Positions 2,038 through 22,445 of a stretch of 64,000 nucleotides of DNA are shown here, one piece after another; positions within the stretch are counted from its first letter, which is position 1; each line of letters begins with the position of its first letter. The stretch covers positions 231,006 to 295,005 of the forward strand of contig DATKVM010000005.1 in assembly GCA_035530075.1 (NCBI GenBank), given 5' to 3'. The notes beneath the pieces were generated by a model, which saw only the letters and a program-made list of their open reading frames with translations, searched no databases and was not told where the DNA came from. The translations under genes were made by a program, and so were the position numbers. Origin of the DNA: Patescibacteria group bacterium. GTDB lineage: Bacteria > Patescibacteriota > Microgenomatia > UM-FILTER-40-11.

Positions 2038-3924
2038 ATGAAGCCGACTTTTACCCTTCAAATTGCCAAGATAGTTGGCACTCCCAGCGATGGCTTTTGG
2101 TCCCAAGTTCATACCTTTTCTCCGGAAGAGGAGGGAAAAAAAGAAAAGCGGGGCGATTTGCTGACGGTTCTCGTGATTACGGGGGTGCCGGCCGGAGTGG
2201 AATCAGTCGCTGCGGGCCGGGAAATTTTAAGCCGGCTTCATCAGGAATACTACGAAAACCTTTCTGGAAGCGCTTTCGAAAGATTATCGACGGCGGTCAA
2301 AAGATTGGGAGAAGAAAACGAAAATTTGGAATTAATTGCCGCTGTCCTTTTGAACCAAGCCCTTTATTTGACGATTTATGGCGATGGCCGGATTTTCCTT
2401 AAACGAGGAGAAAAGGCGGGGATTCTTTTAAAAGGCGACGGTGGGTTAAAAACGGCCAGTGGTCTCTTGGAAGCAAACGACCTTTTGGTTCTTGGTTCTC
2501 AGCGGTTTTTTGAGGCAGTTGGTGACGGCGTCCTTAAAGCCAGTCTCGAAAGCGGTTCTGCCACGGAAGCGGTAGAAACTTTGGCCCCAATAGTTTTGGG
2601 GCGCAGCGATATGTCAGCCGCGGCGGCCATATTAGCTTGCGCTCGGAAGGAGGAGGAATTGTCAATTCAGCCGGTTATGCCTGAAGAAGAAAAGTCAGTG
2701 GCCTCGCCAGTTCCGGTTAAAGAAGGAAAAAGTGTCTTGGCTTTACCTCTAAAAGAGAAGTTTTTAGGCTCGTTGCGCCTTAAGTTTCTTCACCGCCGAC
2801 GCTCGTCAATATTTGTCCGCTCAGCGGCCGCGGAAAGGAAAAAACGCCTTTATTTTCTGATCTCGCTTGTTCTCTTGTTCCTTTTAGGCACGAGTTTAAT
2901 TTTGGGGGTGCACCGGAAAGCCGAAACCGACAAACGGGCGCAAGCGGGTCAACTGGTCAAACAAGCAGAAGAAAAACTGAATCAAGGAAAAACTCTTTTT
3001 GCTAGCCAACCTTCGGAGGGAAGAGTTCTGGGTGAAGAGGCGCAACGGTTGACAGAAGAAGCGTTGACTTTAAGCCCTGAGGGTAATGAAGAGGCGACCT
3101 TTCTTAAAGAAGAAGTGAAAAAGTTTTTGTCTTCCTTGGGTCGGGAAGTTGCTTTAGCTGAGCCGGCGGTTTTTATGGACCTAAACATTATTGATGATGA
3201 GGCCAGTGGGGTGGCTTTGGGCCTGGCGGAGGAAAACTTAGTTGTTCTAGATAAGACTAAAAAGAAAATTTATCTTTTGAGCGTGGAAAAAAGGTCTCAG
3301 ACGGTGATTGATTTGGCGGGCGAGCAGGGAAATTTGCTGGTGGCGGTCGATAAAAAGGCCTTTGTTCTGGCCGAAGATGGGATATATGCCGTTAATCTTC
3401 TCCAAAAATCCGCCAGCCTCAAGGTTGAGAAAGACGAGGCTTGGCAGGAAATCGTTGGCTTGGGTACCTTTGTCGGCAACCTTTATCTTTTGGACAAAGG
3501 CGCCGGTAATATTTGGCGCTATTTGGCGACCGATGAAGGTTTTGGGGTTCGGAAAAGTTGGTTTTTAGGCGCCCCGCCTGACCTTTCTCAAAGCGTTTCG
3601 TTGGCGGTTGATGGGGTCATTTGGGTGCTTAAAAAAGAGGGGATTAGCAAGTTTAACTTAGGTAAAGAAGAAAATTTTGTCTTAAACCGGATGCCGGAAA
3701 GCTTTTTGGACCCGGCTAAAATCTTTACTTCGGCTGAGGCGGAAAATCTTTACGTTTTGGATAAAGGGAGAGGGAAGATTTACGTCATTGCCAAAAACGG
3801 CGATTTTAAGGCCGCCTATGCTTGGGACGGCTTTAAAAACGCTCAAGATTTAGTGGCAGTTGAGAGTTTGAAGAAACTTTTTGTTCTCTCGGGAACGAAA
3901 ATTTACACCATAGACCTAAAATGA
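2038..3924 (+). CDS. Large hypothetical protein with a central TM segment; the N-terminal region is weakly PP2C/SpoIIE-like
   Basis: 628-aa ORF with a TM segment 'LYFLISLVLLFLLGTSLILGV' mid-protein. Its stop codon (3922-3924) lies 2 nt from the tmRNA 3' end on the opposite strand. Confidence 0.5.
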   Translation: MKPTFTLQIAKIVGTPSDGFWSQVHTFSPEEEGKKEKRGDLLTVLVITGVPAGVESVAAGREILSRLHQEYYENLSGSAFERLSTAVKRLGEENENLELIAAVLLNQALYLTIYGDGRIFLKRGEKAGILLKGDGGLKTASGLLEANDLLVLGSQRFFEAVGDGVLKASLESGSATEAVETLAPIVLGRSDMSAAAAILACARKEEELSIQPVMPEEEKSVASPVPVKEGKSVLALPLKEKFLGSLRLKFLHRRRSSIFVRSAAAERKKRLYFLISLVLLFLLGTSLILGVHRKAETDKRAQAGQLVKQAEEKLNQGKTLFASQPSEGRVLGEEAQRLTEEALTLSPEGNEEATFLKEEVKKFLSSLGREVALAEPAVFMDLNIIDDEASGVALGLAEENLVVLDKTKKKIYLLSVEKRSQTVIDLAGEQGNLLVAVDKKAFVLAEDGIYAVNLLQKSASLKVEKDEAWQEIVGLGTFVGNLYLLDKGAGNIWRYLATDEGFGVRKSWFLGAPPDLSQSVSLAVDGVIWVLKKEGISKFNLGKEENFVLNRMPESFLDPAKIFTSAEAENLYVLDKGRGKIYVIAKNGDFKAAYAWDGFKNAQDLVAVESLKKLFVLSGTKIYTIDLK

Positions 3925-3925
3925 T

Positions 3926-4301
3926 TGGTGGAGATGTCCGGAATTGAACCGGAGTCCGAAAAATACTTCTTAAAACTTCTACAAGCTTAGGCTGACTTTA
4001 AATCCTTCAACCTGTTCCGTCAGCCAGGAAGGTTGAAGGCCGCCAAACTTGGGCTTGAGTATTAGGAGTTTGGCAACCCTAACACCGGCGTCTTGTCTTT
4101 GTTCACACCTTTAAGCTTCCGACAAGCAAGAAACCTTAAAGATGCCTGTTACGCTAAAGAAGCGTAGTTAAACGCAAAATTAACGTCAGGGGAAGCGTAT
4201 GTATCATTAGCTTCTATTTTTTTTGACCCTGTTTTACTTCTCTTAGTCAAAGAAGGCTTGCTGTTTTAAAAGAGCCTTTTCCGTCGAGACCAGTCATCCC
4301 C
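3926..4301 (-). ncRNA. ssrA: tmRNA (ssrA)
   Basis: The minus strand reads 5'-GGGGATGACTGGTCTCGACGG...GGTTCAATTCCGGACATCTCCACCA-3'. This gives a tRNA-Ala-like acceptor (GGGGATG / CATCTCC+ACCA) and a T-arm GGTTCAATTCC. The partner gene smpB is directly adjacent. An internal reading frame (complement of 4149-4211) would encode the tag ANDTYASPDVNFAFNYASLA followed by a stop. Confidence 0.8.
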
Positions 4302-4381
4302 TTAAATGTCCCTACTTCTTTCCCCTGGGTTCGGTTGTTACCGCGCGTAATTTACGATTTTGGCGGCTGGTTGTCAAGCCC

Positions 4382-4819
4382 CTAATGCGAGGCTAGTTCC
4401 AACTCCGCTTCGCGGGCCAAATCTCGCCGGCGGAGAGCTTCCTTTTTCTCCCACTGTTTCCGAGGCTTTGCCAAGGCTATTTCCAGCTTGATTTGGATGC
4501 CCCGATTATACCAAGAAAGAGGCACCAAAATCAACTTTTTTTGCTTCATCTTGCTGGTCAAAGCCAGCAATTCCCGACGGTGTAAAAGGAGCTTTCGGGT
4601 CCGCTTGGGGTCAATTTTGCGGCTGTCAGCATAGGCGTAAGGGTGAATGTGAGCGTTGAGCAAAAACGCCTCCCCCCCGACGAACTTAATATAGGCTTCA
4701 TCCAAGGAAGCCTGGCCGACAAAAAGTGATTTCACTTCCGGACCAGTTAAGACCACGCCTGCTTCAAACCTATCGAAAACCTCATAGTTTAAACCGGCCT
4801 TTCGGTTAATAATCTTCAT
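4382..4819 (-). CDS. smpB: SsrA-binding protein SmpB
   Basis: 145-aa ORF with typical SmpB length and sequence ('GPEVKSLFVGQASLDEAYIKF...LLLHRRELLALTSKMKQKKLILVPLSWY'), adjacent to the tmRNA. Confidence 0.9.
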   Translation of the reverse strand: MKIINRKAGLNYEVFDRFEAGVVLTGPEVKSLFVGQASLDEAYIKFVGGEAFLLNAHIHPYAYADSRKIDPKRTRKLLLHRRELLALTSKMKQKKLILVPLSWYNRGIQIKLEIALAKPRKQWEKKEALRRRDLAREAELELASH

Positions 4820-4855
4820 ACGCCTATTTTATCACTCCAGTGTTAAACTAAGGCA

Positions 4856-5548
4856 GTGACTTTCTTGGACGCTTTTTTCCCTCGACGCTGTCTTGGCTGC
4901 GGCCAGACCGGAGGCTATTTTTGCCCTTCTTGCTTACCCAAGATAAAGAGAGTGACCCAAATTTGCCCGGTTTGCGAGCGGCCTTCGCCTTTTGGCCAAA
5001 CCCATCCCCGCTGTTATTCCCGCCCTTCCTTAACGGGCTTAATTTCTTTCTTTGTTTATGAGGGGATAATTAGAAAAGCTATTCATCGGTTGAAATACCG
5101 GCAGGTGACCGATTTACTTGAGGAGCTTTGGCAGATAGTAACCCAAGAACTAGGAGGAAGGGCGGAGGAGCTTAGCGGCTTTCATCAATTTCTTAAAGAA
5201 AAACCCGCCGTTATTCCCGTTCCGCTTTTTTGGTACAAGGAAAATTTACGTGGTTTTAACCAGTCTAGCCTAATAGGGGAAAGACTGGCAGAAAGGTGTA
5301 ATTTAACCTTTTTGAGCAACTTTCTTATTCGCCAAAAGATGACTTCTACCCAGACCAAACTTAACCCGAAAGAACGACAAAAGAATGTTGGCAACGCTTT
5401 TATCATCAACCCCGACTACTCACTACCGATTGCTGACTGCATATTGATAGATGATGTCTGGACGACCGGGGCTACTCTAAAGACCGCTGGTAGTGTTTTG
5501 AAGAGGGCGGGGACAAAAAATGTTTGGGGGTTGACTTTGGCTCGGTAG
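4856..5548 (+). CDS. comF: ComF-family protein (double zinc ribbon plus phosphoribosyltransferase domain)
   Basis: An N-terminal CxxC...CxxC ribbon ('CLGCGQ...CPSC...CPVC') is followed by a C-terminal PRTase motif ('ILIDDVWTTGATL'). Confidence 0.75.
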   Translation: MTFLDAFFPRRCLGCGQTGGYFCPSCLPKIKRVTQICPVCERPSPFGQTHPRCYSRPSLTGLISFFVYEGIIRKAIHRLKYRQVTDLLEELWQIVTQELGGRAEELSGFHQFLKEKPAVIPVPLFWYKENLRGFNQSSLIGERLAERCNLTFLSNFLIRQKMTSTQTKLNPKERQKNVGNAFIINPDYSLPIADCILIDDVWTTGATLKTAGSVLKRAGTKNVWGLTLAR

Positions 5549-5584
5549 CAAACCCAGGCTAAATTCGCTATAATTAGAGCACAA

Positions 5585-5666
5585 GGAGAGTGGGCCGGGC
5601 GGCAAGGCACAAGTTTGCTAAACTTGCTTCCGAAAGGAAGGGTGGGTTCGACTCCCACACTCTCCG
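5585..5666 (+). tRNA. tRNA-Ser(GCU), type II with a long variable arm
   Basis: The cloverleaf can be drawn by hand. Acceptor GGAGAGT/ACTCTCC; anticodon stem CAAGT/ACTTG with loop TTGCTAA (anticodon GCT); variable hairpin CTTCCgaaaGGAAG; T-arm GTGGG-TTCGACT-CCCAC. Confidence 0.85.
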
Positions 5667-5669
5667 CAC

Positions 5670-5986
5670 GTGAATTTTAGCCAACTAAGATCTTTCTCCA
5701 AGCGGGAACACTCTCGCCTTTTGAATTTTTATAACTTCAAGAGGAGAGAACAATTAAAACATCTTGTTTGTCTAAAGATCGGAGAAGAGCTTGGGGAACT
5801 AATGGAAGAGGTATTGTCGCTGGAAAAGATTCAGAGAAAAGAGAAGCTTGAGGGTGGAAGAATAAGGTTGGCAACGAAATTGCGGATGTAATTTTAACGG
5901 CGATATTGCTGGCGGAAAATTTAGGAATTGATTTAGAGGAAGAATTAGAAAAAGGGGTTGCGAAAAGAAATAAAAGAAAATATTAA
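5670..5986 (+). pseudogene. MazG/YpjD-like nucleotide pyrophosphohydrolase split by a frameshift
   Basis: Frame A (5670-5891) carries the EExGE helix ('IGEELGELMEEV') and then stops. The next frame continues with 'VGNEIADVILTAILLAENLGIDLEEELEKGVAKRNKRKY*', the usual second half of MazG-like proteins. The frame switches near 5860-5870. Confidence 0.5.
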
Positions 5987-6005
5987 GGAGGAGAGTCAAG
6001 TTTTT

Positions 6006-6087
6006 GGAGGGTGGGCAGGACGGTAATGCGCTGGTCTTGAAAACCAGTGTCCGTAAGGACTAACAGGTTCGACTCCTGTACCCTCCG
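6006..6087 (+). tRNA. tRNA-Ser(UGA)
   Basis: Acceptor GGAGGGT/ACCCTCC; anticodon stem CTGGT/ACCAG with loop CTTGAAA (anticodon TGA); long variable arm; T-arm ACAGG-TTCGACT-CCTGT. Confidence 0.85.
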
Positions 6088-6088
6088 C

Positions 6089-6724
6089 ATGATCAAACTC
6101 TGCCCTCGATGCAGCCGTCAATTTAAGACAAGAGTAACAACGCAAAAATTTTGTTCTTCATTGGGCGCCAATCGCTTTAACAGAAATGGACTCAAGAAGG
6201 TTGACCTTCCCAACAAATCAGAAGAATTGGCCGAATTAGTGGGAATTATTTTAGGTGACGGAGACCTAAATAGATATCAACTGAGGATTACTCTCAATTC
6301 AATTGTGGACAAGGAATATCTCGTCGAAGTCGAGAATCTTTTAAAAAGGCTGTTCGGGGATATAAAGGTTTTCAAGATAAAAAGGCGGGGAGAAGGGTGC
6401 ACGGTAGTTGGGGTATCTTCAGTCGAGATTGTAAATTTCTTAAAAGGAATGAGCGTCGCTTCAAGAAAGCCAAAAGTTCCTGGTTGGATTTTTTTAAAAA
6501 GAGAATACGGGAATAATATTCTGTTGACTTTTGTGAGAGATGTTTTTAACAAATTGGGGTATAGTTCCACCCAGTCTTTAATAAAGAATTTATATTTGAG
6601 CAACGATCGGGAAATTGATAAATATAGAAAACTAGTTGGTTTTCGCAACCAAAAGCTAGAAAGAAAAAGTTTGATAAGAAATTATTCAGACTACTTAGTT
6701 CTTTACAATAAACGCCAGCAATAG
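6089..6724 (+). CDS. Free-standing LAGLIDADG homing endonuclease with an N-terminal zinc ribbon
   Basis: The motif 'LAELVGIILGDGDLN' is a canonical LAGLIDADG block. The N-terminus has 'CPRCSRQ' plus later Cys residues. The start codon sits 1 nt after the tRNA-Ser(UGA) 3' end. The upstream in-frame extension (6047) overlaps the tRNA and is rejected. Confidence 0.7.
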   Translation: MIKLCPRCSRQFKTRVTTQKFCSSLGANRFNRNGLKKVDLPNKSEELAELVGIILGDGDLNRYQLRITLNSIVDKEYLVEVENLLKRLFGDIKVFKIKRRGEGCTVVGVSSVEIVNFLKGMSVASRKPKVPGWIFLKREYGNNILLTFVRDVFNKLGYSSTQSLIKNLYLSNDREIDKYRKLVGFRNQKLERKSLIRNYSDYLVLYNKRQQ

Positions 6725-6778
6725 ATTATCAAGAACGCAGGTTAGAATCTCGCCCTCTCCGCCCTTCGACTTCGCTCA

Positions 6779-6837
6779 GGGCTATAGCCCTTTTTTGTCC
6801 AGGGCTTCAGCCCTTTTTCGCTCAGGGCTATAGCCTT
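6779..6837. terminator. Three tandem GC hairpins (GGGCTATAGCCC, GGGCTTCAGCCC, GGGCTATAGCC), each followed by a T-run
   Basis: Short palindromes with 3'-T tracts are visible directly. They lie between the LAGLIDADG gene and the methyltransferase gene. Confidence 0.4.
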
Positions 6838-6878
6838 TGCTTGCTTTCTTCCTCGGACGCCCCTTATCTTAAAGAGTA

Positions 6879-7484
6879 ATGAATTTTAGTCCTCAGGATA
6901 GAAAAAGAATTGGCGATTATTATCGGCAGCGTCTTGACCGCTATGGAGTTGATAGTGCCGAAGCTTTAAGCTGGTCCAGTCAGCAGGCTCAGCAGATTCG
7001 TTTCCAAGTCCTAACTCAAGTAGGGGATTTGCGCGGCAAGAGCATTTTGGACGTTGGTAGCGGGCTAGGGGATCTTTACGCTCTTTTACAAAAAACGGTC
7101 GGTGAATTTGATTATTTGGGGGTCGATTTGGTGCCGGATTTAGTGACGGTGGCCAGAGCCAAATATCCTCAAGCTCAGTTTGAGAATAGAGATATCCTTG
7201 ATTTTAATGACCGAAAATTCGACTACGTGCTCTCTTCTGGAGCAATGTCCTTCAAGGTTCCCCAGCATTTTGATAAATATTTCGCCATGATTAGAAAAAT
7301 GTTTTCTTTGGCTCGTTTAGGATTGGCCTTCAATATGCTCGACCAGCGGGGGCATATCGATAATGAGCTTTATGCTGCTTATAATCCGTCAGAAATTGAG
7401 GCTTTTTGTCGGACTCTGACGCCAAAAGTGAAGCTAATTACTCATTATTCTCCTCAAGATTTCACTCTCCTTTTGCATCCCTAA
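6879..7484 (+). CDS. Class I SAM-dependent methyltransferase
   Basis: Motif I 'ILDVGSGLGDL' plus acidic residue 'GVDLVPD'. 201 aa. Confidence 0.7.
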   Translation: MNFSPQDRKRIGDYYRQRLDRYGVDSAEALSWSSQQAQQIRFQVLTQVGDLRGKSILDVGSGLGDLYALLQKTVGEFDYLGVDLVPDLVTVARAKYPQAQFENRDILDFNDRKFDYVLSSGAMSFKVPQHFDKYFAMIRKMFSLARLGLAFNMLDQRGHIDNELYAAYNPSEIEAFCRTLTPKVKLITHYSPQDFTLLLHP

Positions 7485-7514
7485 AAAATTTCTTAATTTG
7501 CTTTTCTTTAAGGG

Positions 7515-8105
7515 GTGTTTTATTCTAAAAGTATGGTTGAGGAAGGCTTACCAGCGGCTTCTCCGATTGAGGTTATCCCCTCTAAGGAATTACGGATTTT
7601 ATACTCCTGGAACGCTCCTTCTCGTCCCTTTAAGAAACGGGATCGGGAATTTTGGGCAACGGTAGTGGCGATTGTTTTTTTAGTCGCCTTGATTTTGTTT
7701 TTTGTTAAAGAGTGGTTTTTAATTGCCGCGATTATTGCTCTGACTTTCGTTTATTATGTCCTCTCGACGGTTGAACCGGAAATGACCAGCTATAAATTGA
7801 CTAATCGTGGTTTGGTTTATGCCGGCGAAACTCATCCTTGGGAGAATATCAGTCAGTTTTGGCTAGCCGAGAAATACGGTCAGCGGGTGATTAACTTTGA
7901 ATTAAGAAGTGGCTTACTTGGTAGACTGACTTTATTGGTCGGGGAGGGAGAAGAAGCAGAAATCAGAGGGATTTTACTTAAATACTTGACCGAAGAGGAG
8001 GCTAAACCCAGTTTTTTAGATAGAGCGGCCGATTGGCTCCAAAAAAAGGTTCCCCTAGAGAGTGAAAAGAAAGAAGGTCTTCCTACTCCGCCTTCGGCTG
8101 CCTGA
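7515..8105 (+). CDS. Membrane protein (hypothetical)
   Basis: 196 aa with two adjacent TM helices ('WATVVAIVFLVALILFFV', 'FLIAAIIALTFVYYVL') and a soluble tail. Confidence 0.4.
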   Translation: MFYSKSMVEEGLPAASPIEVIPSKELRILYSWNAPSRPFKKRDREFWATVVAIVFLVALILFFVKEWFLIAAIIALTFVYYVLSTVEPEMTSYKLTNRGLVYAGETHPWENISQFWLAEKYGQRVINFELRSGLLGRLTLLVGEGEEAEIRGILLKYLTEEEAKPSFLDRAADWLQKKVPLESEKKEGLPTPPSAA

Positions 8106-8139
8106 ACTTTGAGGCTACTTTTTGCTATAATTAGGCCAC

Positions 8140-8216
8140 GCGCTCATAGTTTAACGGATAAAATGCCAGGTTGCGGACCTGGAGACTTGGAGGTTCGATT
8201 CCTCCTGGGCGCACCA
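8140..8216 (+). tRNA. tRNA-Arg(GCG), CCA encoded
   Basis: Acceptor GCGCTCA/TGGGCGC; D-stem GTTT/AAAT with loop AACGGATA; anticodon stem CCAGG/CCTGG with loop TTGCGGA (anticodon GCG); T-arm GGAGG-TTCGATT-CCTCC; 3' ACCA. Confidence 0.75.
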
Positions 8217-8399
8217 TTAGAAGTTAAAAGTCCAAAGTGCAGAGTTAAAAGTTAGAAAGAACGGGTTTCAGGTTCGGCAGGAAGCAAGAAGTTGGTAGAA
8301 GGGAATATAAATTAATCTTCGAGGCGAACCCAGCGAAGATCTCGAAGATTACCTTGAAGGAAGATTTTTGCAAAGAAACCCTCGGTTTCTTTGCTAGAT

Positions 8400-8484
8400 G
8401 GAAAGGTGCAGGAGTGGTTGAACTGGCCGCTCTCGAAAAGCGGTAGGGCGCAAGCTCTCGTGGGTTCGAATCCCACCCTTTCCG
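8400..8484 (+). tRNA. tRNA-Ser(CGA)
   Basis: Acceptor GGAAAGG/CCTTTCC; anticodon stem CCGCT/AGCGG with loop CTCGAAA (anticodon CGA); long variable arm; T-arm GTGGG-TTCGAAT-CCCAC. Confidence 0.85.
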
Positions 8485-8494
8485 CTCTGAGCTT

Positions 8495-8583
8495 GCGCCT
8501 GTAGTTTAACGGATAAGCATAGCTTGATGTTCGCAGGCTCACATTAAGCATAGCTTGATTCTCGCCAGCTAAGCTGGCTCAAA
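8495..8583 (+). repeat. tRNA-Arg 5'-fragment remnant plus two 15-bp direct repeats (TAAGCATAGCTTGAT)
   Basis: 8495-8516 'gcgcctgtagtttaacggataa' mirrors the 5' acceptor and D-arm of tRNA-Arg(GCG) ('gcgctcatagtttaacggataa'), but no matching 3' half follows. The sequence 'taagcatagcttgat' occurs at 8514-8528 and again at 8545-8559. A hairpin GCCAGCtaaGCTGGC sits at 8564-8578. Confidence 0.45.
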
Positions 8584-8611
8584 TTAAAGCGTCAGGTTCT
8601 CGCCCGCTTAT

Positions 8612-8683
8612 GCCTTTGTAGCTTAACGGATAGAGCGCCGGCCTCCGGAGCCGGAAATGCCAGTTCAATTCTGGCCAGAGGCA
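8612..8683 (+). tRNA. tRNA-Arg(CCG)
   Basis: Acceptor GCCTTTG/CAGAGGC; D-stem GCTT/GAGC with loop AACGGATA; anticodon stem CCGGC/GCCGG with loop CTCCGGA (anticodon CCG); T-arm GCCAG-TTCAATT-CTGGC. No encoded CCA. Confidence 0.8.
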
Positions 8684-8685
8684 CT

Positions 8686-9192
8686 GTGGTTAGACAGTAT
8701 TCTGCCGGCGGGGTGGTTTTCAAAAAAGAAGATGGCCAGACTCTTTGGCTTTTGATCCAGCCTGCCCGCATTGCTACGCAAAGCGTTGCAGGTGAGCCGG
8801 CCGGCAAAGACGAGTTCCATAAACGAATTCGCTGGCAACTGCCTAAGGGTTGGATTAATGAGGGTGAAAAAACCGAAGCGGCGGCGATACGGGAAGTGGC
8901 TGAGGAGGGGGGAGTTAAGGCAAAAATTATCTCCAAGATAGACTCGATAAAGATTTTCTTCAGCAATACCTTTGAAGGCAAGCCCGAGGAAAAAATTTTA
9001 AAAACCATTGCTTTTTATTTAATGGAATATTTGGGAGAAAAGGCTAATGGCCATGATGAGGAAGTAGCTGAAGTGGCTTGGCTGCCTTTTGAAGAAGCCA
9101 AAGGAAGGCTGACTTTTAAAAGTGAAAAAGAAGTTTTAACCAAAGCCAAAGAGATTTTAGAAAATCCACTACCGCAACAAGCACTTTTTTAA
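8686..9192 (+). CDS. Nudix hydrolase
   Basis: GTG start 2 nt after the tRNA-Arg. Nudix box 'GWINEGEKTEAAAIREVAEEGGV' (Gx5Ex7REUxEExGU). Confidence 0.75.
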   Translation: MVRQYSAGGVVFKKEDGQTLWLLIQPARIATQSVAGEPAGKDEFHKRIRWQLPKGWINEGEKTEAAAIREVAEEGGVKAKIISKIDSIKIFFSNTFEGKPEEKILKTIAFYLMEYLGEKANGHDEEVAEVAWLPFEEAKGRLTFKSEKEVLTKAKEILENPLPQQALF

Positions 9193-9233
9193 GCTCGCAA
9201 TTTGCCTCAAAATCAAGTAAAATAGGCATATCC

Positions 9234-9268
9234 GGAGAGGTCGCATAAGCAAGCTTGACCGACCTCTC
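9234..9268 (+). repeat. Duplicated 5' fragment of tRNA-Ser(GGA) forming a hairpin (GGAGAGGTCG...CGACCTCTC) around 'ATAAGCAAGCTTGAC'
   Basis: 9234-9247 'ggagaggtcgcata' equals the first 14 nt of the tRNA at 9278. The junction motif AGCAAGCTTGA resembles AGCATAGCTTGA in the 8495-8583 remnant. Confidence 0.4.
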
Positions 9269-9277
9269 TTGATATTC

Positions 9278-9364
9278 GGAGAGGTCGCATAGTGGTCGAG
9301 TGCACGCGCTTGGAGAGCGCGCAGGGCCGAGAGGCTCTCGCGGGTTCGAATCCCGCTCTCTCCG
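9278..9364 (+). tRNA. tRNA-Ser(GGA)
   Basis: Acceptor GGAGAGG/TCTCTCC (one G-U pair); anticodon stem CGCGC/GCGCG with loop TTGGAGA (anticodon GGA); long variable arm; T-arm GCGGG-TTCGAAT-CCCGC. Confidence 0.8.
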
Positions 9365-9447
9365 CAACGCGGAAATAGGGATATGAAGAACCTTAAATTT
9401 ACCAATCTGGCAATGTTTATTATCTTTTTGGGCCGACTTTAGGAAAA

Positions 9448-9843
9448 ATGGATAAGGAGCGAGAAGTCAGTTTAAGAGGCCATCATTTACACAGTTTCTC
9501 CGACTATGTGGCCTATCGAGATGCTGGTTGGGGGACTGATCCAATCGAAGACGCAAGGTCGTTGGGTTATGGCGAAGATTTTGTTCAAGCGAAGCAAGAG
9601 ATTTATGCTCAAATTTATGATGAATATGAGCAGACACGGGTTTCGATTGTTGATGGTCTTGATACCCAGTGTCAAAGAAATTGCTTAAAAAAGAATCCTG
9701 ATGTTTGTCTGGGGCCCAAAAGCGGAGGAATTGATGCTTCTGCCGCCAGTCTTTTTGGCTTTCAAGTTGGGCAGGCCTATCCAGCGAAAGCTCTTATCAA
9801 TGCCTGCAGGCGGAGGCGCCCTAGTGCAGAACCGATTCCCTGA
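9448..9843 (+). CDS. Hypothetical protein
   Basis: 131-aa ORF on the same strand as the downstream dnaG. No recognisable motif. Confidence 0.35.
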   Translation: MDKEREVSLRGHHLHSFSDYVAYRDAGWGTDPIEDARSLGYGEDFVQAKQEIYAQIYDEYEQTRVSIVDGLDTQCQRNCLKKNPDVCLGPKSGGIDASAASLFGFQVGQAYPAKALINACRRRRPSAEPIP

Positions 9844-9892
9844 TGCTCTGCTAGGCTCGTTTTAATTCTTCTTCTGATATAATCAGGCTAGA

Positions 9893-11713
9893 ATGGATCA
9901 AATAGAAGAAATCCGCTCAAAAATTGATTTAGTCCAATTTATCTCCGAGTTTCTCCCCTTGAAAAAAGCCGGTCGGAATTTTAAAGGTCTTTGTCCCTTC
10001 CATGCGGAAAAGACCCCTTCATTTATGGTTTCGCCCGAGCGGCAGATTTGGCACTGCTTTGGCTGTGGAGCCGGTGGTGATGTCTTCGGTTTCTTGATGC
10101 AAATGGAAAGGATTGAGTTTGGCGAAGCCCTGCGGCTTTTGGCCAAAAAGACCGGTATTACTCTACAAAGCTACCAGCCGACCAAATCGGAGTCTGAAAA
10201 AGAAAAGCTTTTCCAAGCCAATCATTTAGCGGCCGAGTTTTTCCATTATTTACTCCTTAATCACAAAATCGGAGATAAAGCTTTAAGCTACATTCTCCAG
10301 CGGGGGATTAGTAAAGACTCGCTTTCCCTTTTTAAAATCGGTTACGCCCCGCCAATGTGGGATGGTTTGCAGAAGTTTTTAGTTGGCAAAAAGAATTTTG
10401 CTCCGGCCGATTTAGAAAAAGCCGGCTTAACCATTCGGGGTTCACGATCCGGTTTTTATGACCGCTTCCGCAACCGGTTAATGTTTCCTCTTTTGGACCA
10501 CCGGGGTAATGTCACTGGTTTTGCTGGCAGGGTGCTTCCAGAGGGAAAAGAAGCCCGCCTGCCATCGCCTGCGGCCCGCCCGCCTAGCTTCGCAACGCGA
10601 AACGGGCAGGCTCAGGCTGCTGGCGGGCAGGCGAAGTATGTCAATACTCCGGAAACCCTCATTTATCACAAGAGCGAACTTTTGTATCCGCTCCAAATTA
10701 CTAAGGAGGCAATTAAAAAAGAAAATGCTGTCGTTGTGGTTGAGGGGGAACTGGACGCGATTTCGTCCTACCAAATTGGGATTGAAAATGTGGTCGCCAT
10801 TAAAGGCTCAGCCTTGACCGACGCCCAAGCACGGCTTTTAAAACGTTTTGCCGAAAATTTAATTCTCTCTTTAGACGCGGACGCCGCGGGAGATATGGCT
10901 TCTCGGCGGGGGATTGAAATTGCCGATGGTTTGGGCTTAAACATTAAAGTCGTTTCTCTGGAAAAGTATAAAGACCCGGATGAAGCGGCTCAAAAAGAAC
11001 CGGAATATCTGAAAAAGCAGTTGGCCAAGGCCGAAAATATTTACGATTTCTTTATTAACTCCGCCTTTAAGCGCTTGCGGGGCCAAACGGCGGAAGAAAA
11101 AAAGAAAATCGGTCAGGAAATTATCCCGATATTAGGCAAAATTGAGGATCAAATTATGAAAGATGTTTTTATTAAAAAGTTGGCTGATCGGTTAGGAGTG
11201 AACGAGGAATCGATTATTTTGCAGATTGAGAAATTCCTTTTTAAAACTCCGTCGGTTCCCAAAACTTCTTCTCCGCCGGAGATTCGTCAGCGGCGGGAAA
11301 TTTTGGAAGAGTATTTCTTGGCGCTGCTTTTCCAGAGCAAAGAAACGGAAACTCTCCTTAAGGAAAAAGGTTTACTCTCTTTGCCCTTAAGCCTGAAGCT
11401 GATTAAGGCTTTGGCAGACTATTTGACGGAAAAAAAGAAATTCTCCAGCCGATTCTTCTTTAAAGCCTTACCGGGAGAACTGCGCGAGGGGTTTGACCGG
11501 CTGTATTTAGTCGATTTCGGCGAGCGGATTGAGGAGCCCGATTGGGTGGCTAAAGAAATTCAAAAAACCAAAGCCCAGTTGGAAACTTTAAAAATTAAAG
11601 AAGAGCTTCGGGCGATTTGGCAGGCGCTTCGTCAAAATCCAGCGGCAGAAGAAGAAAGCCGCCAAAAAATTCTGCGCTTGACCCAAAAACTCTCCGCTCT
11701 GGAAAAGGCCTAA
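9893..11713 (+). CDS. dnaG: DNA primase DnaG
   Basis: N-terminal zinc-binding 'CPFHAEKTPSF...WHCFGCGAGGD' followed by the TOPRIM region 'VVVEGELDAIS'. The gene carries a ~30-aa Pro/Ala/Gly-rich in-frame segment (10552-10634) that is locally GC-rich and palindromic. Confidence 0.9.
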   Translation: MDQIEEIRSKIDLVQFISEFLPLKKAGRNFKGLCPFHAEKTPSFMVSPERQIWHCFGCGAGGDVFGFLMQMERIEFGEALRLLAKKTGITLQSYQPTKSESEKEKLFQANHLAAEFFHYLLLNHKIGDKALSYILQRGISKDSLSLFKIGYAPPMWDGLQKFLVGKKNFAPADLEKAGLTIRGSRSGFYDRFRNRLMFPLLDHRGNVTGFAGRVLPEGKEARLPSPAARPPSFATRNGQAQAAGGQAKYVNTPETLIYHKSELLYPLQITKEAIKKENAVVVVEGELDAISSYQIGIENVVAIKGSALTDAQARLLKRFAENLILSLDADAAGDMASRRGIEIADGLGLNIKVVSLEKYKDPDEAAQKEPEYLKKQLAKAENIYDFFINSAFKRLRGQTAEEKKKIGQEIIPILGKIEDQIMKDVFIKKLADRLGVNEESIILQIEKFLFKTPSVPKTSSPPEIRQRREILEEYFLALLFQSKETETLLKEKGLLSLPLSLKLIKALADYLTEKKKFSSRFFFKALPGELREGFDRLYLVDFGERIEEPDWVAKEIQKTKAQLETLKIKEELRAIWQALRQNPAAEEESRQKILRLTQKLSALEKA

Positions 11714-14947: not shown

Positions 14948-15024
14948 GTCTAACAAATAAATCATTTGGTCATGTTGGCAGGAGAGAGAAGGGGTGGGAA
15001 AAGTTAGATTAAGAAAATACAGCC
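14948..15024 (+). repeat. Island repeat copy R1 (degenerate)
   Basis: '...ggcaggagagagaaggggtgggaaaagttagattaagaaaatacagcc' matches the right half of the consensus CAAGTTTAGACCTAATTGGTGGGCGAGGGGAGGGTTGGGAGAAGTTAGATTAAGAAAATTCAGCC. Confidence 0.6.
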
Positions 15025-15143
15025 ACGCAATGGAAAATACCAGAAATTATTTACGATGAAGAAATTGAGGCTAAAAGATTTGCCCCCCCCAAAGTTGCGA
15101 TTGTAAAATGATGCCTCTATAATCCCTCTCATTATGGTAGAAG

Positions 15144-15446
15144 GTGACAGGCGGTACCAATATGGGGAGCAGTTTTAGGAGATATTCAACAAAGAGGCTT
15201 GAAGCAATAGTGCGCCAAGCACAAGAAGTTCTGGATGAAAGAGACCTAACTAGAAATGGCCTGTTAATAGAAAGATTTCTGGAGATTCACAATCCAGCTA
15301 GGGGGTGTCAAGTCCAACAAAATAAAGAGCATAGACGGAGCGGTTTTTTCGATTGTGATGGTATTGAACACTCGGTTGAGGTGACTGGCTATTCTTGTCA
15401 AACTCACGGGACCAGTAGCGAAAGACGTTTTGGTGAAATTAATTAA
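15144..15446 (+). CDS. Hypothetical small protein
   Basis: 100-aa ORF inside the island. Confidence 0.3.
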   Translation: MTGGTNMGSSFRRYSTKRLEAIVRQAQEVLDERDLTRNGLLIERFLEIHNPARGCQVQQNKEHRRSGFFDCDGIEHSVEVTGYSCQTHGTSSERRFGEIN

Positions 15447-15477
15447 GCCGATCTCCAATCCTTATCCCTTCAAGTAG

Positions 15478-16374
15478 CTAAAGCATTCCGCCTTTTAACA
15501 GCCTGAACTCCTTTTTAGTTTCCCAGATATTTTTTAGTTGGTCAAAATTATCATCCGGTTTCTGCATTAACCTTGCTAGATTATCTATTTCACCTAATTG
15601 CTCCTCTGATAATTTGTCAAACTTACCAAAATGAGTTATTTGGGGAGTGTGGTGGTAAATAATTTCATCATTCATCAAGCAGTGGAAGTCATAAAAGAGT
15701 TCCCAGGAAATTGCGATTAATCCTCCGTTGCCGCCGGCATTCCAAAAGTGCTGGCCATCGATTTTACCGCTTCGTACTGCCAGCCAGGCATCAGGCGAAA
15801 AGTCAAAAGTTCCTTCCGGAATATCGTAAGGATCAAATTTTAAATACCCTTCGATACTCCCGTCAACGTCAATGGTTACCCACCTGGACTCTTTTTCATT
15901 CCAATATTGATTTAGCCAGTGGTCATCGCTTTTACCGCCCGGTAAGCCATCTACATTGAAGTAGGGAGAAAATCCCGAACGCACACGAGCCGGAATACCT
16001 TTTATCTTTAACAAAGAAGCCATTAAGATTGAGGTAGATCTACAAGTTAGGACTAACTTATTTTCCGCTTCTCTGTCTAGTACTAATCCTCTTGAATCCC
16101 TTCTAAACAGTTCCGCCAACATGGCGGAAGCGGTTATAAACACATCGTCTTCAGGTTGCCTGGTCCAGGGCACTCTGGTTGTGTCTCCATATCTTAAATC
16201 TGCGTTCGAACCGGTATTACCATTTTTCAAAGTCATTCGATGCATGAGTTGTTTTCTAACCAAGAGCCCGATTTCCCTAATATTGTCCGGTAAAGACTTT
16301 TGGAGAATGTCTTGGTAAAGACCCGGGTTGGTATACTGACTAAATTGAAGATAAAAACTTATTATTTTTTTCAT
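15478..16374 (-). CDS. Transglutaminase-like superfamily protein
   Basis: 298 aa. Putative Cys/His/Asp arrangement ('LTCRSTSILMASLL...', '...DDHWLNQYW...', 'IDVDGS'). Confidence 0.5.
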   Translation of the reverse strand: MKKIISFYLQFSQYTNPGLYQDILQKSLPDNIREIGLLVRKQLMHRMTLKNGNTGSNADLRYGDTTRVPWTRQPEDDVFITASAMLAELFRRDSRGLVLDREAENKLVLTCRSTSILMASLLKIKGIPARVRSGFSPYFNVDGLPGGKSDDHWLNQYWNEKESRWVTIDVDGSIEGYLKFDPYDIPEGTFDFSPDAWLAVRSGKIDGQHFWNAGGNGGLIAISWELFYDFHCLMNDEIIYHHTPQITHFGKFDKLSEEQLGEIDNLARLMQKPDDNFDQLKNIWETKKEFRLLKGGML

Positions 16375-16417
16375 CCACTCTCATTTTATCAAATTAAAGC
16401 AACATCTTTATTTTTGG

Positions 16418-16460
16418 TCAGATTAAAAAAATTCAGCCCCCATCCTGGATGAAGTTCGAA
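16418..16460 (+). repeat. Island repeat copy R2 (right-end fragment, ...AGATTAAAAAAATTCAGCCCCCATCCTGGATGAAGTTCGAAC)
   Basis: Near-identical to the right end of R4 (22391-22437). Confidence 0.6.
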
Positions 16461-16461
16461 C

Positions 16462-16767
16462 TTATTTTTTGGCTCCGAAGAAACCGAAGAATCCAAAAAA
16501 ACCAAAAAGTCCAGTGCTGCCCCCTAATCCCAATAAGCCAAACAATCCTATCCAGCCAAGCTTCCACAAATCCCTTGGTTTGCCCTTTCTAATATAATTG
16601 ATTGTATTTTGAACGACTGAAATCACAAATCCAAGAGCAAATATAAAGGTTAGAAGGAAAAATACTGGTTCTTCAATTTTGGAGACACCATAAATAGCGT
16701 TATGCAAAACAATAGAAAGTATGGTCAGCCCGAACAAAATATAGTTTCTTTTTGTTTGTTTTTCCAT
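16462..16767 (-). CDS. Small membrane protein with a Gly/Phe-rich tail (GLFGFFGFFGFFG)
   Basis: 101 aa and two TM helices. Last gene of the minus-strand operon. Confidence 0.4.
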   Translation of the reverse strand: MEKQTKRNYILFGLTILSIVLHNAIYGVSKIEEPVFFLLTFIFALGFVISVVQNTINYIRKGKPRDLWKLGWIGLFGLLGLGGSTGLFGFFGFFGFFGAKK

Positions 16768-16795
16768 ATTATTTATTCTACCAGAAAACTGTCTT

Positions 16796-17797
16796 CTAGG
16801 TATTTTTAATTAAACTCCAAGTGGCATATTCTTCAGGAGTTAAGGTCGGCTCTTTGGCGGATTTTTGGCGGTAAGACCGCTCGAAGTGGGGGACCAGAAT
16901 ATCTTTCTCATAGGATTTAATAATGACGGGATGAATATAGTAGGTGCGGCAGACTTTCTTGGTATTGCCAAGCTGGGTTGAGACTTCGGCCACCACTTCA
17001 GAGAGATTGTTTTTTAAATCCGCCTCGGAAAGCGCCTTGCCTTTTTTATACAGCCAGTCTCCGGCTAAAACGCTGCCGCCCCAGGTGCGAAAATCTTTAG
17101 CGGAAAAATCTGCTCCCGTATGAGTTTGCAAGTAATTGTTCACCTCGGCTGCGTCGACCACTTGCCGGTTATTATTTTCGTCTAAATACTGAAACACTTG
17201 ATAGCCGGGAAGGTCAATGCAGGCCTTAATCGTTCTGGCCACTCGGGGATGATTGACCCCCAGTTCATGAAAGACCCCGCTTTTACCTTCAAAGCTAAAG
17301 GTCATCGTATTGCCTTCAACCTCAATATGCTTTTTGCGCATGGTGGTTAGGCCGTAGGACTGGTTTTCTTCGGCGTAGGTTTGATTGCCCACCCGGATAA
17401 AAGTGTGCTCCAAAAGCCAGACGACCGTGGCAACGACGCGATTTTGAGTTAGAGAGTGTTCTCGCATATGGCCGCTGACGACTTCGCGCAGGGCGGGGAG
17501 CCGCTCGCCAAAAGCTACCATTTGGTCAAACTTTTTTTCTTGGTTGCGCTTAATCCACTCGGGGTGATAAATATATTGTTTGCGGCCGGCTGCGTCCACG
17601 CCAATCGCCTGAACATAATCGTCGGGGTCTGAGCTAACAACCACCTCGGTCCAGGCGGGGGGAATGGCCAACGCGGCTAAACGCTCGGCCGCCGTTTTGG
17701 AAACCGGCTTGCCTTTTTCATCGATAAACCCAAAGCCATTACCTCTCTTAACCCGCCGCCAAGGAAGTTCTGTATCTTTCCGATAATGAATTGTCAC
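16796..17797 (-). CDS. DNA topoisomerase IB (poxvirus/bacterial type)
   Basis: 'AIPPAWTEV...AIGVDAAGRKQYIYHPEW' and the C-terminal 'LGNTKKVCRTYYIHP' match bacterial TopIB motifs, including the catalytic Tyr region. Confidence 0.7.
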   Translation of the reverse strand: MTIHYRKDTELPWRRVKRGNGFGFIDEKGKPVSKTAAERLAALAIPPAWTEVVVSSDPDDYVQAIGVDAAGRKQYIYHPEWIKRNQEKKFDQMVAFGERLPALREVVSGHMREHSLTQNRVVATVVWLLEHTFIRVGNQTYAEENQSYGLTTMRKKHIEVEGNTMTFSFEGKSGVFHELGVNHPRVARTIKACIDLPGYQVFQYLDENNNRQVVDAAEVNNYLQTHTGADFSAKDFRTWGGSVLAGDWLYKKGKALSEADLKNNLSEVVAEVSTQLGNTKKVCRTYYIHPVIIKSYEKDILVPHFERSYRQKSAKEPTLTPEEYATWSLIKNT

Positions 17798-17835
17798 CAG
17801 TATATTGTAGCAAAACTAGAGGGTAGATAAAGAAA

Positions 17836-18465
17836 CTAACTTAACCATTTTGTAAGTTGTTGGCCGATTTTCGTCACCAAATCATGAGCACCAGATAAAT
17901 TAGCTGCAATACCAACCGCTGACCATGCCGCTTGGATAATTTTTTTTGTTGGATTGGGTTTAATTAGTTGGGCTTTAATCACCTCAATATCTCCAACAAG
18001 ATTTCTTTTTTCTTCATCAGATAACTGGGCTTCTTTAATGATGCCTATCAATTTGTCCAGATCGTTTATAGAACTTCCACTTGCCTGAGAGATAGTCCCA
18101 TATTGATGGCCCGAGACAAAGATCACATTTGCCCCTTCTTCAGCCTCAATTGTGACAGAAGATAAGGCTTTTTGGGAAAATTTCGAATCTTCAAATAACC
18201 GAATGCCTTTATTAGATATCCTTATTTCTTGAAACAAAATAGATTGTCCTGTTAGTTTCACCCGTTCATTCCTAGTGTCAATGTATTTCTCGCCAATCAA
18301 GTAATCAATATTATTCTTAATCCTAATTCTATCTAACTCTGCAGAGCGTAAATCGCCAATCACTTTTTCTGAAGTAGTCCACTGAGCCCTTGATTTGTTG
18401 AAGTCATAAAGATATCTAAGGATTTTTTCTTTTACTTCGTCTTCGGAAAGAGTATTCGAGTCCAT
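17836..18465 (-). CDS. Hypothetical protein (operon member)
   Basis: 209 aa. Stop/start 2 nt from the upstream gene. Confidence 0.4.
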   Translation of the reverse strand: MDSNTLSEDEVKEKILRYLYDFNKSRAQWTTSEKVIGDLRSAELDRIRIKNNIDYLIGEKYIDTRNERVKLTGQSILFQEIRISNKGIRLFEDSKFSQKALSSVTIEAEEGANVIFVSGHQYGTISQASGSSINDLDKLIGIIKEAQLSDEEKRNLVGDIEVIKAQLIKPNPTKKIIQAAWSAVGIAANLSGAHDLVTKIGQQLTKWLS

Positions 18466-18466
18466 A

Positions 18467-18880: not shown

Positions 18881-18925
18881 CGGAGAGATGAGGCAAAGGC
18901 GGGAAGAAATTAAAAAAATTAGCGC

Positions 18926-20918: not shown

Positions 20919-20948
20919 TATTGTAGATATACCATAAACTTACTATAG

Positions 20949-21545: not shown

Positions 21546-21661
21546 GTTGGTTTTACCAGTCTTACCCAGTGGTAAGTATAGTGAAAGCCCATTTGTTCCC
21601 ACGCGTGGACTCCCTTCGGTTCCCTCAGGGCAAGCCCTTAGGAAACTCAGGGTAAACTTCA

Positions 21662-21780: not shown

Positions 21781-21781
21781 T

Positions 21782-22303: not shown

Positions 22304-22340
22304 GGGAATATTATACTGTAGTTCGAGTCCACGCCGGGTT

Positions 22341-22437: not shown

Positions 22438-22445
22438 AGTTTAGC

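Follow-up and report, generated by a model that had tools for sequence, protein, structure and literature searches.

Apparent disruption and replacement of tRNA genes beside the relic of a LAGLIDADG endonuclease gene in the Ser/Arg tRNA cluster of a Candidatus Shapirobacteria genome

The stretch of 64,000 nucleotides (nt) analysed here, called the window below, comes from a Patescibacteria group bacterium (GenBank assembly GCA_035530075.1, contig DATKVM010000005.1, positions 231,006 to 295,005 of the forward strand), which its DnaG relatives place in Candidatus Shapirobacteria (Microgenomates, Candidate Phyla Radiation, CPR). Between 5585 and 9365 it carries six tRNA genes, all on the + strand, on which ARAGORN and Rfam agree (Rfam 45-68 bits against a gathering score of 29 bits): tRNA-Ser(GCU) at 5585-5667, tRNA-Ser(UGA) at 6006-6088, tRNA-Arg(GCG) at 8140-8216, tRNA-Ser(CGA) at 8400-8485, tRNA-Arg(CCG) at 8612-8684 and tRNA-Ser(GGA) at 9278-9365. 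An earlier note on this DNA had described the four tRNA-Ser and two tRNA-Arg genes, a LAGLIDADG endonuclease gene right behind tRNA-Ser(UGA), two fragments of tRNA 5' ends and a short motif common to both fragments. All of these descriptions hold: the open reading frame (ORF) of the endonuclease begins with an ATG at 6089, after a gap of 0-1 nt, the sequences at 8495-8516 and 9228-9247 match tRNA 5' ends, and the motif is present in four copies in the 64 kb. On balance we favour the view that this is a conserved cluster in which three of the six tRNA genes were destroyed and functionally replaced, that the stubs are the debris of the old genes, and that the nuclease gene is a relic.

The order Ser(GCU), Ser(UGA), two genes, Arg(GCG), Ser(CGA), Arg(CCG), Nudix gene, Ser(GGA), dnaG is found in the loci L012-L015 and L017 of relatives, and the same tRNA order is kept, as far as the contigs extend, in the closer relatives L088-L093 and L102, which were reached via homologues of the Nudix protein and of the endonuclease. 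In Shapirobacteria the cluster sits between smpB/comF and dnaG. This conserved order argues that the density of the array, and also its isoacceptor content, is ancestral and ordinary for the clade. The spacers of the relatives are often just 0-16 nt, whereas those of the window are long, and it is these long spacers, not the density, that need an explanation. Six independent assemblies (99.9-100% identity) agree on the structure of the locus, which is therefore not an assembly artefact; since these assemblies of the same strain do not differ in structure, polymorphism at the strain level was rejected as well. A useful reference is L090, which is 77-94% identical to the window over seven proteins: three of the other tRNAs are identical between the two, as opposed to 68% identity for the replaced genes. 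tRNA-Ser(GCU) is identical to the gene of L089 and L090. Two further observations concern the array as such. The segment comF, smpB, tmRNA, Ser(GCU), Ser(UGA) is inverted in L089 (1281-2689) and L090 (1650-3029) with respect to the window (4382-6088) and L093; the tmRNA of the window, found by both ARAGORN and Rfam, is at 3926-4301 on the - strand. The usual anticodon of the bacterial tRNA-Arg that comes first in this array is ACG; here (8140-8216) the anticodon is GCG, and it is kept in all relatives examined.

The first altered site lies behind tRNA-Ser(GCU), a gene with an extended -10 promoter (TTCGCTATAAT, -10 at 5569-5574) about 10 nt upstream. L089, L090 and L093 have just 4 nt between Ser(GCU) and their ancestral Ser(UGA), and in relatives the spacer at this site is 3-56 nt; the window has therefore gained a block of about 1.06 kb directly after tRNA-Ser(GCU), consisting of a MazG-like pseudogene, tRNA-Ser(UGA) and the LAGLIDADG ORF. 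The pseudogene forms the left part of this lineage-specific insertion (5668-6005, + strand) and is frameshifted, i.e. it runs over two reading frames; its frameshift-corrected translation matches PF12643 with 34.4 bits against a cut-off of 27 bits. The tRNA-Ser(UGA) that follows is a replacement gene, its body 68% identical to the ancestral gene that close relatives have at the same position, and the same type of body is found in Ser(UGA) of L013 and Ser(CGA) of L014. What is left of the ancestral gene is a 3' stump of about 33 nt (T-arm and acceptor strand, 6731-6763, + strand) just after the ORF. It matches L089 at 22 of 22 positions, including 3 nt of flank, and leads into the common downstream flank; it also matches L090 and L093. 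An extension of the stump in the 5' direction, into the end of the ORF, was rejected, as 51 of 500 shuffles scored equally well, and a 12-nt match between the left end of the block and the start of a methyltransferase gene in relatives was judged to be chance (E=0.39). No match was obtained when the ORF was compared with phage genomes (tblastn), the Arg spacer with phages (blastn) or the 1.06-kb block with plasmids (blastn), so that a phage or plasmid origin is unsupported. Just after the stump there are three tandem hairpin units of 23 nt (AGGGCTATAGCCCT and a T run; 6771-6843, + strand) that look like terminators; one partial copy is present at the same place in L089, and a related sequence is found upstream of Arg(GCG) in L088.

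The LAGLIDADG ORF (6089-6724, + strand) is free-standing and encodes 211 amino acids (aa). Its motif 1 (LAELVGIILGDGDL) includes the catalytic Asp, and the columns G, D and G are invariant in both alignments with relatives. The second motif block, CLRGLxDTDG, and about 30 following residues are found in four relatives and are missing from the window ORF, and the alignment with relatives shows that the N-terminal stretch of about 125 aa of the family is missing too. The Pfam matches remain below threshold, both for LAGLIDADG_2 (PF03161; E=0.011, 16.1 bits against a cut-off of 25 bits) and for PF14528 (12.3 bits against 22.5), the domain that the homologues of the ORF carry. An AlphaFold model (AF2), of low confidence (mean predicted local distance difference test, pLDDT, 50.5), has the order alpha-beta-beta-alpha-beta-beta-alpha at residues 45-119 and no second core; the top Foldseek matches of this low-confidence model in the PDB are all LAGLIDADG enzymes (E = 5e-5 to 0.1). 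Judged by its sequence, the ORF is a decayed relic of a family of about 340 aa and cannot form the two-motif active centre. The earlier note was thus right about the family of this gene and not about a present activity, given that the second motif with its catalytic acid and the N-terminal region are gone. The note had itself counted missing active-site residues against its proposal, and the second catalytic acid is indeed absent from the ORF.

A first protein search with the ORF gave three distant relatives, all of them with two motifs (LAELVGIILGDG and LRGLxDTDGG). A profile search gave 294 proteins; among those listed most are 320-390 aa long, and most have PF14528 and an N-terminal region that resembles a helix-turn-helix (HTH). 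The full-length family has about 340 aa, i.e. an HTH region plus two LAGLIDADG motifs. In relatives the intact members belong to the same array and are always on the strand of the tRNA and directly upstream of it. In L092 (79% identity of the Nudix protein) and L102-105 the endonuclease gene separates Arg(GCG) from Ser(CGA), and the last part of its ORF overlaps the latter. In L106 the order is comF, endonuclease gene, 8 nt, Ser(GCU); the protein is from Moranbacteria and recurs in 70 blocks of the contig collection. In L008 the gene overlaps tRNA-Trp; this locus is probably archaeal, since its tRNA genes are longer than usual and its neighbours are of archaeal type. The relic ORF of the window, which immediately precedes what is left of the ancestral tRNA-Ser(UGA), is in the usual position of the family. 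A truncated member is found in L007 as well, and close relatives differ in whether they have the gene at this locus, the 1.06-kb block of the window corresponding to 4 nt in L089, L090 and L093.

The tRNA gene next to the endonuclease gene is also of interest. The Ser(CGA) adjoining the endonuclease gene in L092 and L102 is of another sequence type than that of the endonuclease-free relatives, whereas L088, L090, L093 and the window, whose relic is at another site, have no endonuclease gene here and share an identical Ser(CGA) (8400-8485). The divergent type of the tRNA in L092 indicates that, there at least, the nuclease gene and the neighbouring tRNA allele arrived together. In the library searched we found no paper describing an association of this HTH-LAGLIDADG family with tRNA-Ser genes in CPR bacteria, which is weak evidence of novelty. 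The array of L102, which already holds an intact LAGLIDADG gene, may have a second nuclease-like gene: the 342-nt spacer between Ser(CGA) and Arg(CCG) (3573-3914) encodes a small protein that by eye resembles GIY-YIG proteins (YVYLLR...GST...EH...).

At the second altered site the undisturbed state is seen in L090, where Ser(CGA) is followed by a 9-nt spacer (TCTGAGTTT) and by tRNA-Arg(CCG), which starts with GCGCCTGTAGTTTAACGGATAAAGCGTCAGGTTCCGG. The Arg-like fragment of the window (8495-8516, + strand) begins 9 nt after tRNA-Ser(CGA), at the same distance as the intact gene of L090, and corresponds to positions 1-22 of that gene (22/22 match, plus 8/9 of the spacer). By comparison, it is 86% identical to the 5' end of the window's tRNA-Arg(GCG) and 73% to that of its tRNA-Arg(CCG). 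The collinearity with L090 over the spacer and the first 22 nt shows that the fragment is the 5' stub of the ancestral tRNA-Arg(CCG) in its original place and not a copy of a neighbour. The pairwise alignment with L090 (a multiple alignment was also made) shows a 71-nt insertion in the D-loop of the ancestral gene, at 8514-8584, which consists of two copies of one unit: unit C, 31 nt long (8514-8544, + strand), and unit A, 40 nt long (8545-8584, + strand). The insertion is followed by a second piece of the ancestral gene, positions 20-34 (TAAAGCGTCAGGTTC; 8585-8599, + strand), which matches L090 at 15 of 15 positions and ends in the anticodon loop. After this come an unrelated linker of 12 nt and the replacement tRNA-Arg(CCG) (together 8600-8684, + strand), a gene with 68% identity to the ancestral one and 100% to that of L093. 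The collinearity of the window with L090 returns at the last bases of tRNA-Arg(CCG) and at the start of the Nudix gene. The structure recurs in L093, where the new tRNA is identical but there is one 40-nt unit instead of two; unit C, which has the motif at its 5' end and is absent from L093, is therefore a later, shortened tandem copy of unit A.

The distribution of this allele does not follow relatedness. On five shared protein markers L093 is farther from the window than L090 is, and L089 and L092 are also nearer than L093 on the markers that they carry; L089, L090 and L092 retain the ancestral Arg(CCG), while the more distant L093 shares the replaced allele. The disrupted and replaced Arg(CCG) allele has therefore moved between lineages. 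A further insertion in this part of the array is the 183-nt spacer (8217-8399, + strand) between tRNA-Arg(GCG), which has its own promoter (TTTGCTATAAT, -10 at 8126-8131), and tRNA-Ser(CGA); L088 shares it with the window, as against a single nt in L090. The last 58 nt or so of this spacer (8335-8392) are homologous to the tmRNA leader of L012 (3735-3791) and L093 (about 2783-2850), and the tmRNA of the window itself has a different upstream region. A leader module has been swapped here between stable-RNA genes, namely between tmRNA and tRNA-Ser(CGA).

The third altered site is tRNA-Ser(GGA). The fragment at 9228-9247 (+ strand) is 95% identical to 9272-9291, that is to 6 nt of leader and the first 14 nt of the working gene. 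It is preceded by a -10-like TAAAAT (9218-9223) and occupies the promoter-proximal position that the gene has in L012 and L014, in which the same type of tRNA-Ser(GGA) follows a TAAAAT-type promoter directly, without any insertion. The Ser-like stub is thus the original promoter-proximal leader and 5' end of tRNA-Ser(GGA), cut off from the working gene by a 44-nt insertion. This insertion, placed after position 14 of the tRNA, is identical in the window and L088. It is made up of AGCAAGCTTGAC (12 nt of the motif), CGACCTCTCT, TTG and a 20-nt direct repeat; CGACCTCTCT is an inverted copy, 10 nt long, of positions 1-10 of the tRNA, and the direct repeat (leader and positions 1-14) restores a complete tRNA-Ser(GGA). 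In terms of coordinates, the 24 unique nt of the insert (motif AGCAAGCTTGA, then CGACCTCTCT) and the duplicated leader ATATTC occupy 9248-9277 (+ strand). Together with 9228-9247 they form a hairpin with arms of 23 bp (folding z = -5.3), which would prevent base pairing between the inverted copy and the working tRNA. The insert has no differences between the window and L088, as opposed to five in the 29 nt just upstream, and this lack of divergence is compatible with constraint, with a recent transfer, or with conversion against the tRNA.

Break points inside tRNA genes call to mind the mobile introns of tRNA genes, and the excision of such an intron was one of the origins that the earlier note had proposed for the two fragments. 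They would then be footprints of an excised intron of group I or archaeal type, an idea to which the nearest relatives of the endonuclease lend something, as they include L008, where the gene is beside intron-containing tRNAs. Even so we consider this origin scarcely credible. An Rfam scan of 3500-10500 (E up to 5) finds only tRNAs and tmRNA at meaningful scores and no intron family in the spacers, the breaks are in D-loops (14/15 and about 21/22) rather than in the anticodon loop, each stub is followed by a complete, uninterrupted tRNA, and the Arg stub belongs to another gene copy than the working tRNA does.

The motif shared by the fragments, TAAGC-N1-3-AGCTTGA, lies at 8514, 8545 and 9246 on the + strand, and a fourth copy, not listed in the earlier note, is found 23 kb away at 31913-31900 (- strand), 70 nt upstream of tRNA-Asn (31771-31843, - strand; ARAGORN and Rfam). 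Four matches in 64 kb compare with 0.03 expected, and no shuffle reached four. All copies are at most 100 nt upstream of a tRNA and have its direction, the chance of which, taking three independent loci, is about 2e-7. A unit of about 40 nt has the motif as its first 14 nt: TAAGCAWAGCTTGAT, 3-4 nt, a 6-bp hairpin and TCAAAT. Unit A reads TAAGCATAGCTTGAT, TCTC, the hairpin GCCAGC-TAA-GCTGGC and TCAAAT. Unit B (31874-31913, - strand) is placed between a TTGCTATAAT promoter (31937-31928) and tRNA-Asn (31843-31771); its hairpin, GTCAGC-AAC-GCTGAC, differs from that of unit A by one compensatory change (C-G to U-A). There is a further copy in L093, with the motif changed to GCAGAACTTGAT, and the shortened unit C belongs here as well, as do the 12 nt of motif within the insert at Ser(GGA). 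An nhmmer profile of the unit finds no copies in all fetched loci beyond A, B and C of the window and those of L093/L094. A metagenome scan with the full-unit pattern AAGCWWAGCTTGATN{18,20}TCAAAT gave 47 matches, which were judged to be chance: none has the hairpin and none is linked to a tRNA, the sole tRNA in any of these loci being about 3.4 kb from its match. Four matches in a viral scan, with no tRNA in the locus, were judged likewise, and a viral scan for the new Arg(CCG) gave no match.

Could the motif AGCAWAGCTTGA be the recognition or junction sequence of the LAGLIDADG endonuclease, so that the fragments would be scars of its cleavage and of the gene conversion that follows? The motif is a small near-palindrome, like the sites of homodimeric LAGLIDADG enzymes, the endonuclease family is tied to tRNA-Ser genes of the array, and in L092 there is a possible 5' stub of the old Ser(CGA), 6-7 nt long, before the endonuclease gene. 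However, the motif is missing at all endonuclease junctions examined, i.e. those of the window, L092, L102 and L106, and the unit is present in L093, which has an intact Ser(GCU)-Ser(UGA) junction and no endonuclease gene in the array and in which, moreover, the motif is altered. The window ORF, for its part, has lost motif 2 and the N-terminal domain. We therefore give this explanation a low probability. The wider proposal of the earlier note, scars of endonuclease-stimulated gene conversion, survives in part: the fragments are real scars of disrupted tRNA genes and a LAGLIDADG family is tied to the tRNA-Ser genes of the array, but nothing connects the motif with the endonuclease junctions.

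Another possibility is that the unit is functional, a 5' leader module of tRNA precursors (a promoter TTGATT-18 nt-TCAAAT, a processing or stability hairpin, or a regulator) that is exchanged between stable-RNA genes. The position and the uniform direction of the copies upstream of tRNAs would fit such a module, as would the constant 18-nt spacing of TTGATT and TCAAAT in units A and B, the compensatory pair in the hairpin, the Ser(GGA) insert that stayed identical in the window and L088 although the spacer upstream differs at 5/29, and the fact that another leader module demonstrably moved between tmRNA and tRNA-Ser(CGA). Yet relatives with the same tRNAs lack the unit, the gene that harbours the unit in the Arg locus is dead, a canonical promoter is already present about 15 nt before unit B, and the folding z-scores are modest except for the palindrome. 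As a promoter the unit was rejected, since the promoter scan finds nothing there and the L093 copy reads TCGAAT, which weakens the putative -10 and also breaks the small hairpin. All in all a leader module seems unlikely to us. Promoter, terminator and Rfam scans reveal no resemblance of the unit to a promoter, a terminator or an Rfam family. The earlier note had named ubiquitous terminators unrelated to tRNA genes as a finding that would speak against it; the terminator scan finds nothing at 8486-8611, 9228-9277 and 31874-31913, and the four copies in 64 kb are all upstream of a tRNA. The idea of a degenerate tRNA was also rejected: no Rfam tRNA match is found in the spacers at E up to 5, and a likeness to Ser variable arms or to anticodon arms, seen by eye, is weak.

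The unit might also be a miniature non-autonomous transposable element, similar to miniature inverted-repeat transposable elements (MITEs) or repetitive extragenic palindromic (REP) sequences, that targets D-loop-like sequences of tRNAs and duplicates TAA. The insertion in the D-loop of the ancestral Arg(CCG) is clean and has TAA on both sides, there are several copies at unlinked loci, and the unit has an internal hairpin. On the other hand its ends carry no terminal inverted repeats, it is known from three loci only, with no further copies in the fetched loci and none linked to tRNA genes among the metagenome and viral matches, and no transposase turned up when about 17 ORFs, those of the array and its surroundings and those near tRNA-Asn, were scanned with Pfam. 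The duplicated flanks, as we read the junctions, are also unequal, with 20 nt at Ser(GGA) as against 3-7 nt at Arg and about 11 nt at Asn. We regard such an element as rather improbable. The start of the unit overlaps ATA/ATAA in both target D-loops, and this overlap, together with the unequal flanks, is easier to reconcile with copying in the course of repair, by microhomology or template switching, than with a transposase. Copying of this kind is the likeliest reading of how the unit moves, and one that we hold weakly. As to the nature of the motif, we take it to be the 5' end of a hairpin-bearing unit, in this reading a filler copied between the 5' regions of tRNAs, and not the recognition site of the nuclease.

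Taken together, the evidence points to selfish nucleases and sloppy recombination that turn over tRNA genes, and not to a new kind of system. In the scenario that we favour, breaks in or next to tRNA genes would be repaired with divergent donor DNA, with homology at one side of the join and an illegitimate event (microhomology or template switching) at its other side, and what remains would be a stub of the old gene and, next to it, a new copy that works. The break at Ser(UGA) was probably made by the homing endonuclease, the replacement tRNA-Ser(UGA) would have been supplied by a later or linked insertion, and the nuclease gene would decay once it is fixed. Direct comparison of sequences shows the anatomy and the ancestral states, and likewise that the ORF has decayed and that its family is associated with tRNA-Ser genes; the agent of the breaks and the way in which the unit is copied are what we infer. 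Replaced tRNAs with remnants beside them are also found elsewhere: there are 3' stumps next to replaced tRNAs in L089, L102, L012 and L013, namely 3' ends of older Arg(GCG) genes after the new ones in L089 and L102, and 3' duplicates after Ser/Arg genes in L012, L013 and L089. As a separate observation, a GC-rich hairpin of about 45 nt (CCCGCCTGCCATYGGCTGTCGCC..AGGCGACTGGCGGGCAGG) occurs in L089 (4625-4769) and L013 (2224-2359) immediately before the 3' stump of a replaced tRNA; with two genomes and two different tRNA loci, it is another short element associated with junctions.

There are a few points that weigh against this interpretation. No nuclease gene or remnant is present at the Arg(CCG), Ser(GGA) and Asn sites, so a break made by a nuclease is conjecture there, and tRNA-Ser is a putative target of the endonuclease family. 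The undiverged Ser(GGA) insert could be under constraint and so have a function, instead of being neutral debris. The mode of copying of the unit is a presumed one, the window having just four copies, spread over three loci, and L093 one more, and the TAA on both sides of it in the Arg locus could be a target duplication of the transposase type. Finally, the states that we call ancestral are so by parsimony across metagenome-assembled genomes.

A more far-reaching proposal can be formulated, according to which a widespread HTH-LAGLIDADG family of CPR and DPANN genomes homes into tRNA-Ser genes, its ORF ending at or within the 5' end of the tRNA, spreads together with a cleavage-resistant tRNA allele and drives serial replacement of tRNAs in these reduced genomes, the unit of about 40 nt being an undescribed short element that is copied specifically into the 5' parts of tRNAs. 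We consider this possible but doubtful.

Some observations outside the array deserve mention. The part of tRNA-Asn that begins in the anticodon loop and makes up its 3' half is present a second time, as a 38-nt copy with 89% identity at 26519-26556 (-), 5.25 kb from its counterpart in the intact gene at 31772-31809 (-). It resembles the att repeat of an integrated element, and Pfam finds no integrase between the copies; the ORFs there encode a GNAT acetyltransferase, a PEMT-like protein, a cytidylyltransferase and proteins of no known kind. In the more distant L012 and L013 tRNA-Asn comes directly after rpoD, and the gene has therefore been relocated in the window. Close to this rearranged region there is a gene for a single-strand annealing protein of the Rad52/Rad22 family (33684-34145, + strand; Pfam E=2e-9). 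Bacterial annealing proteins of this family are usually of phage or mobile-element origin. In addition, seven to eight copies of a 36-66-nt repeat (...GTTTAGACCTAATTGGTGGGCGAGGGGAGGGTTGGGAGAAGTTAGATTAAGAAAATTCAGC) are dispersed over 14957-30381, 0.5-7 kb apart; the repeat could be an intergenic or 5' untranslated region module, or a cassette boundary.

CPR bacteria have tiny genomes. The array has one copy per isoacceptor, so that the loss of a gene should matter, and nonetheless the genes were repeatedly destroyed and replaced by divergent alleles, one of which is shared between lineages against their relatedness. A homing-endonuclease family located right next to tRNA-Ser genes would be a concrete driver that can be tested, a chromosomal LAGLIDADG counterpart of SegB of phage T4. 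For annotation, the tRNA stubs and leader modules of these genomes are best treated as recombination debris and not as split or intron-containing tRNAs. The parts are of kinds already known, a relic of a free-standing homing endonuclease and remnants of tRNA genes, with the unit of about 40 nt as a small additional element.

It is instructive to compare the locus with known systems, the closest of which is SegB. According to Table 1 of PMC2988022 and its reference 38, SegB of phage T4 is a free-standing homing endonuclease in a tRNA gene cluster, and the same source states that it promotes the inheritance of itself and of the neighbouring tRNA region (co-conversion, marker exclusion; PMC2988022). 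The similarities are that the endonuclease gene is placed between tRNA genes and that it travels with a divergent tRNA allele, as judged from L092 and L102 versus the endonuclease-free relatives. The differences are that SegB is a GIY-YIG enzyme of a phage genome, while here we have LAGLIDADG proteins with an N-terminal HTH region in bacterial (CPR) chromosomes; that the genes described here abut or overlap the 5' end of tRNA-Ser genes; and that the window copy is inactive as judged by its sequence. With the double-motif LAGLIDADG enzymes (PF14528/PF03161; I-DmoI, I-Tsp061I, intein-associated domains) the window protein shares motif 1 with the catalytic Asp and, as far as the low-confidence model goes, the predicted order of helices and strands. 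Unlike them it is without motif 2 and the strands after it and stays below the Pfam gathering threshold, while its full-length relatives have, in addition, about 125 aa of HTH-like sequence at the N-terminus.

Homing endonucleases reportedly pass through a cycle of invasion, fixation, degeneration and loss, which Goddard and Burt are said to have described in 1999 for intron-borne genes of yeast mitochondria. The presence and absence of the gene at the same locus in close relatives and the truncated copies in the window and L007 bear similarities to this cycle, although the gene here is free-standing and its apparent target, the tRNA gene, is replaced and not interrupted. Partial duplicates of tRNA genes are also said, after Williams (2002), to mark the borders of integrated elements, whose att sites are in anticodon or T loops. 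As at such borders, tRNA stubs flank inserted DNA, and there are breaks in the anticodon loop (ancestral Arg(CCG), tRNA-Asn half copy) and in T-loops (L089, L013); direct repeats of tRNA 3' parts do exist in the window. In contrast to integrase islands, however, the working tRNAs are whole divergent genes and not chimeras that share an att core, and no integrase was found by Pfam among the scanned ORFs of 4.8-9.9 kb or 25.7-35.7 kb. Nor do integrases typically leave stubs of 5' ends with junctions in the D-loop. Homology-facilitated illegitimate recombination and microhomology-mediated template switching are known processes, and with these the junctions agree in that each is collinear on one side (the tRNA 3' end or the start of the Nudix gene) and has a short overlap (ATA/ATAA) on the other. 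The Ser(GGA) insert combines, as in template switching, an ectopic snippet with a local inverted copy and a local direct duplication; a recombination mechanism of this kind is what the anatomy of the junctions would suggest.

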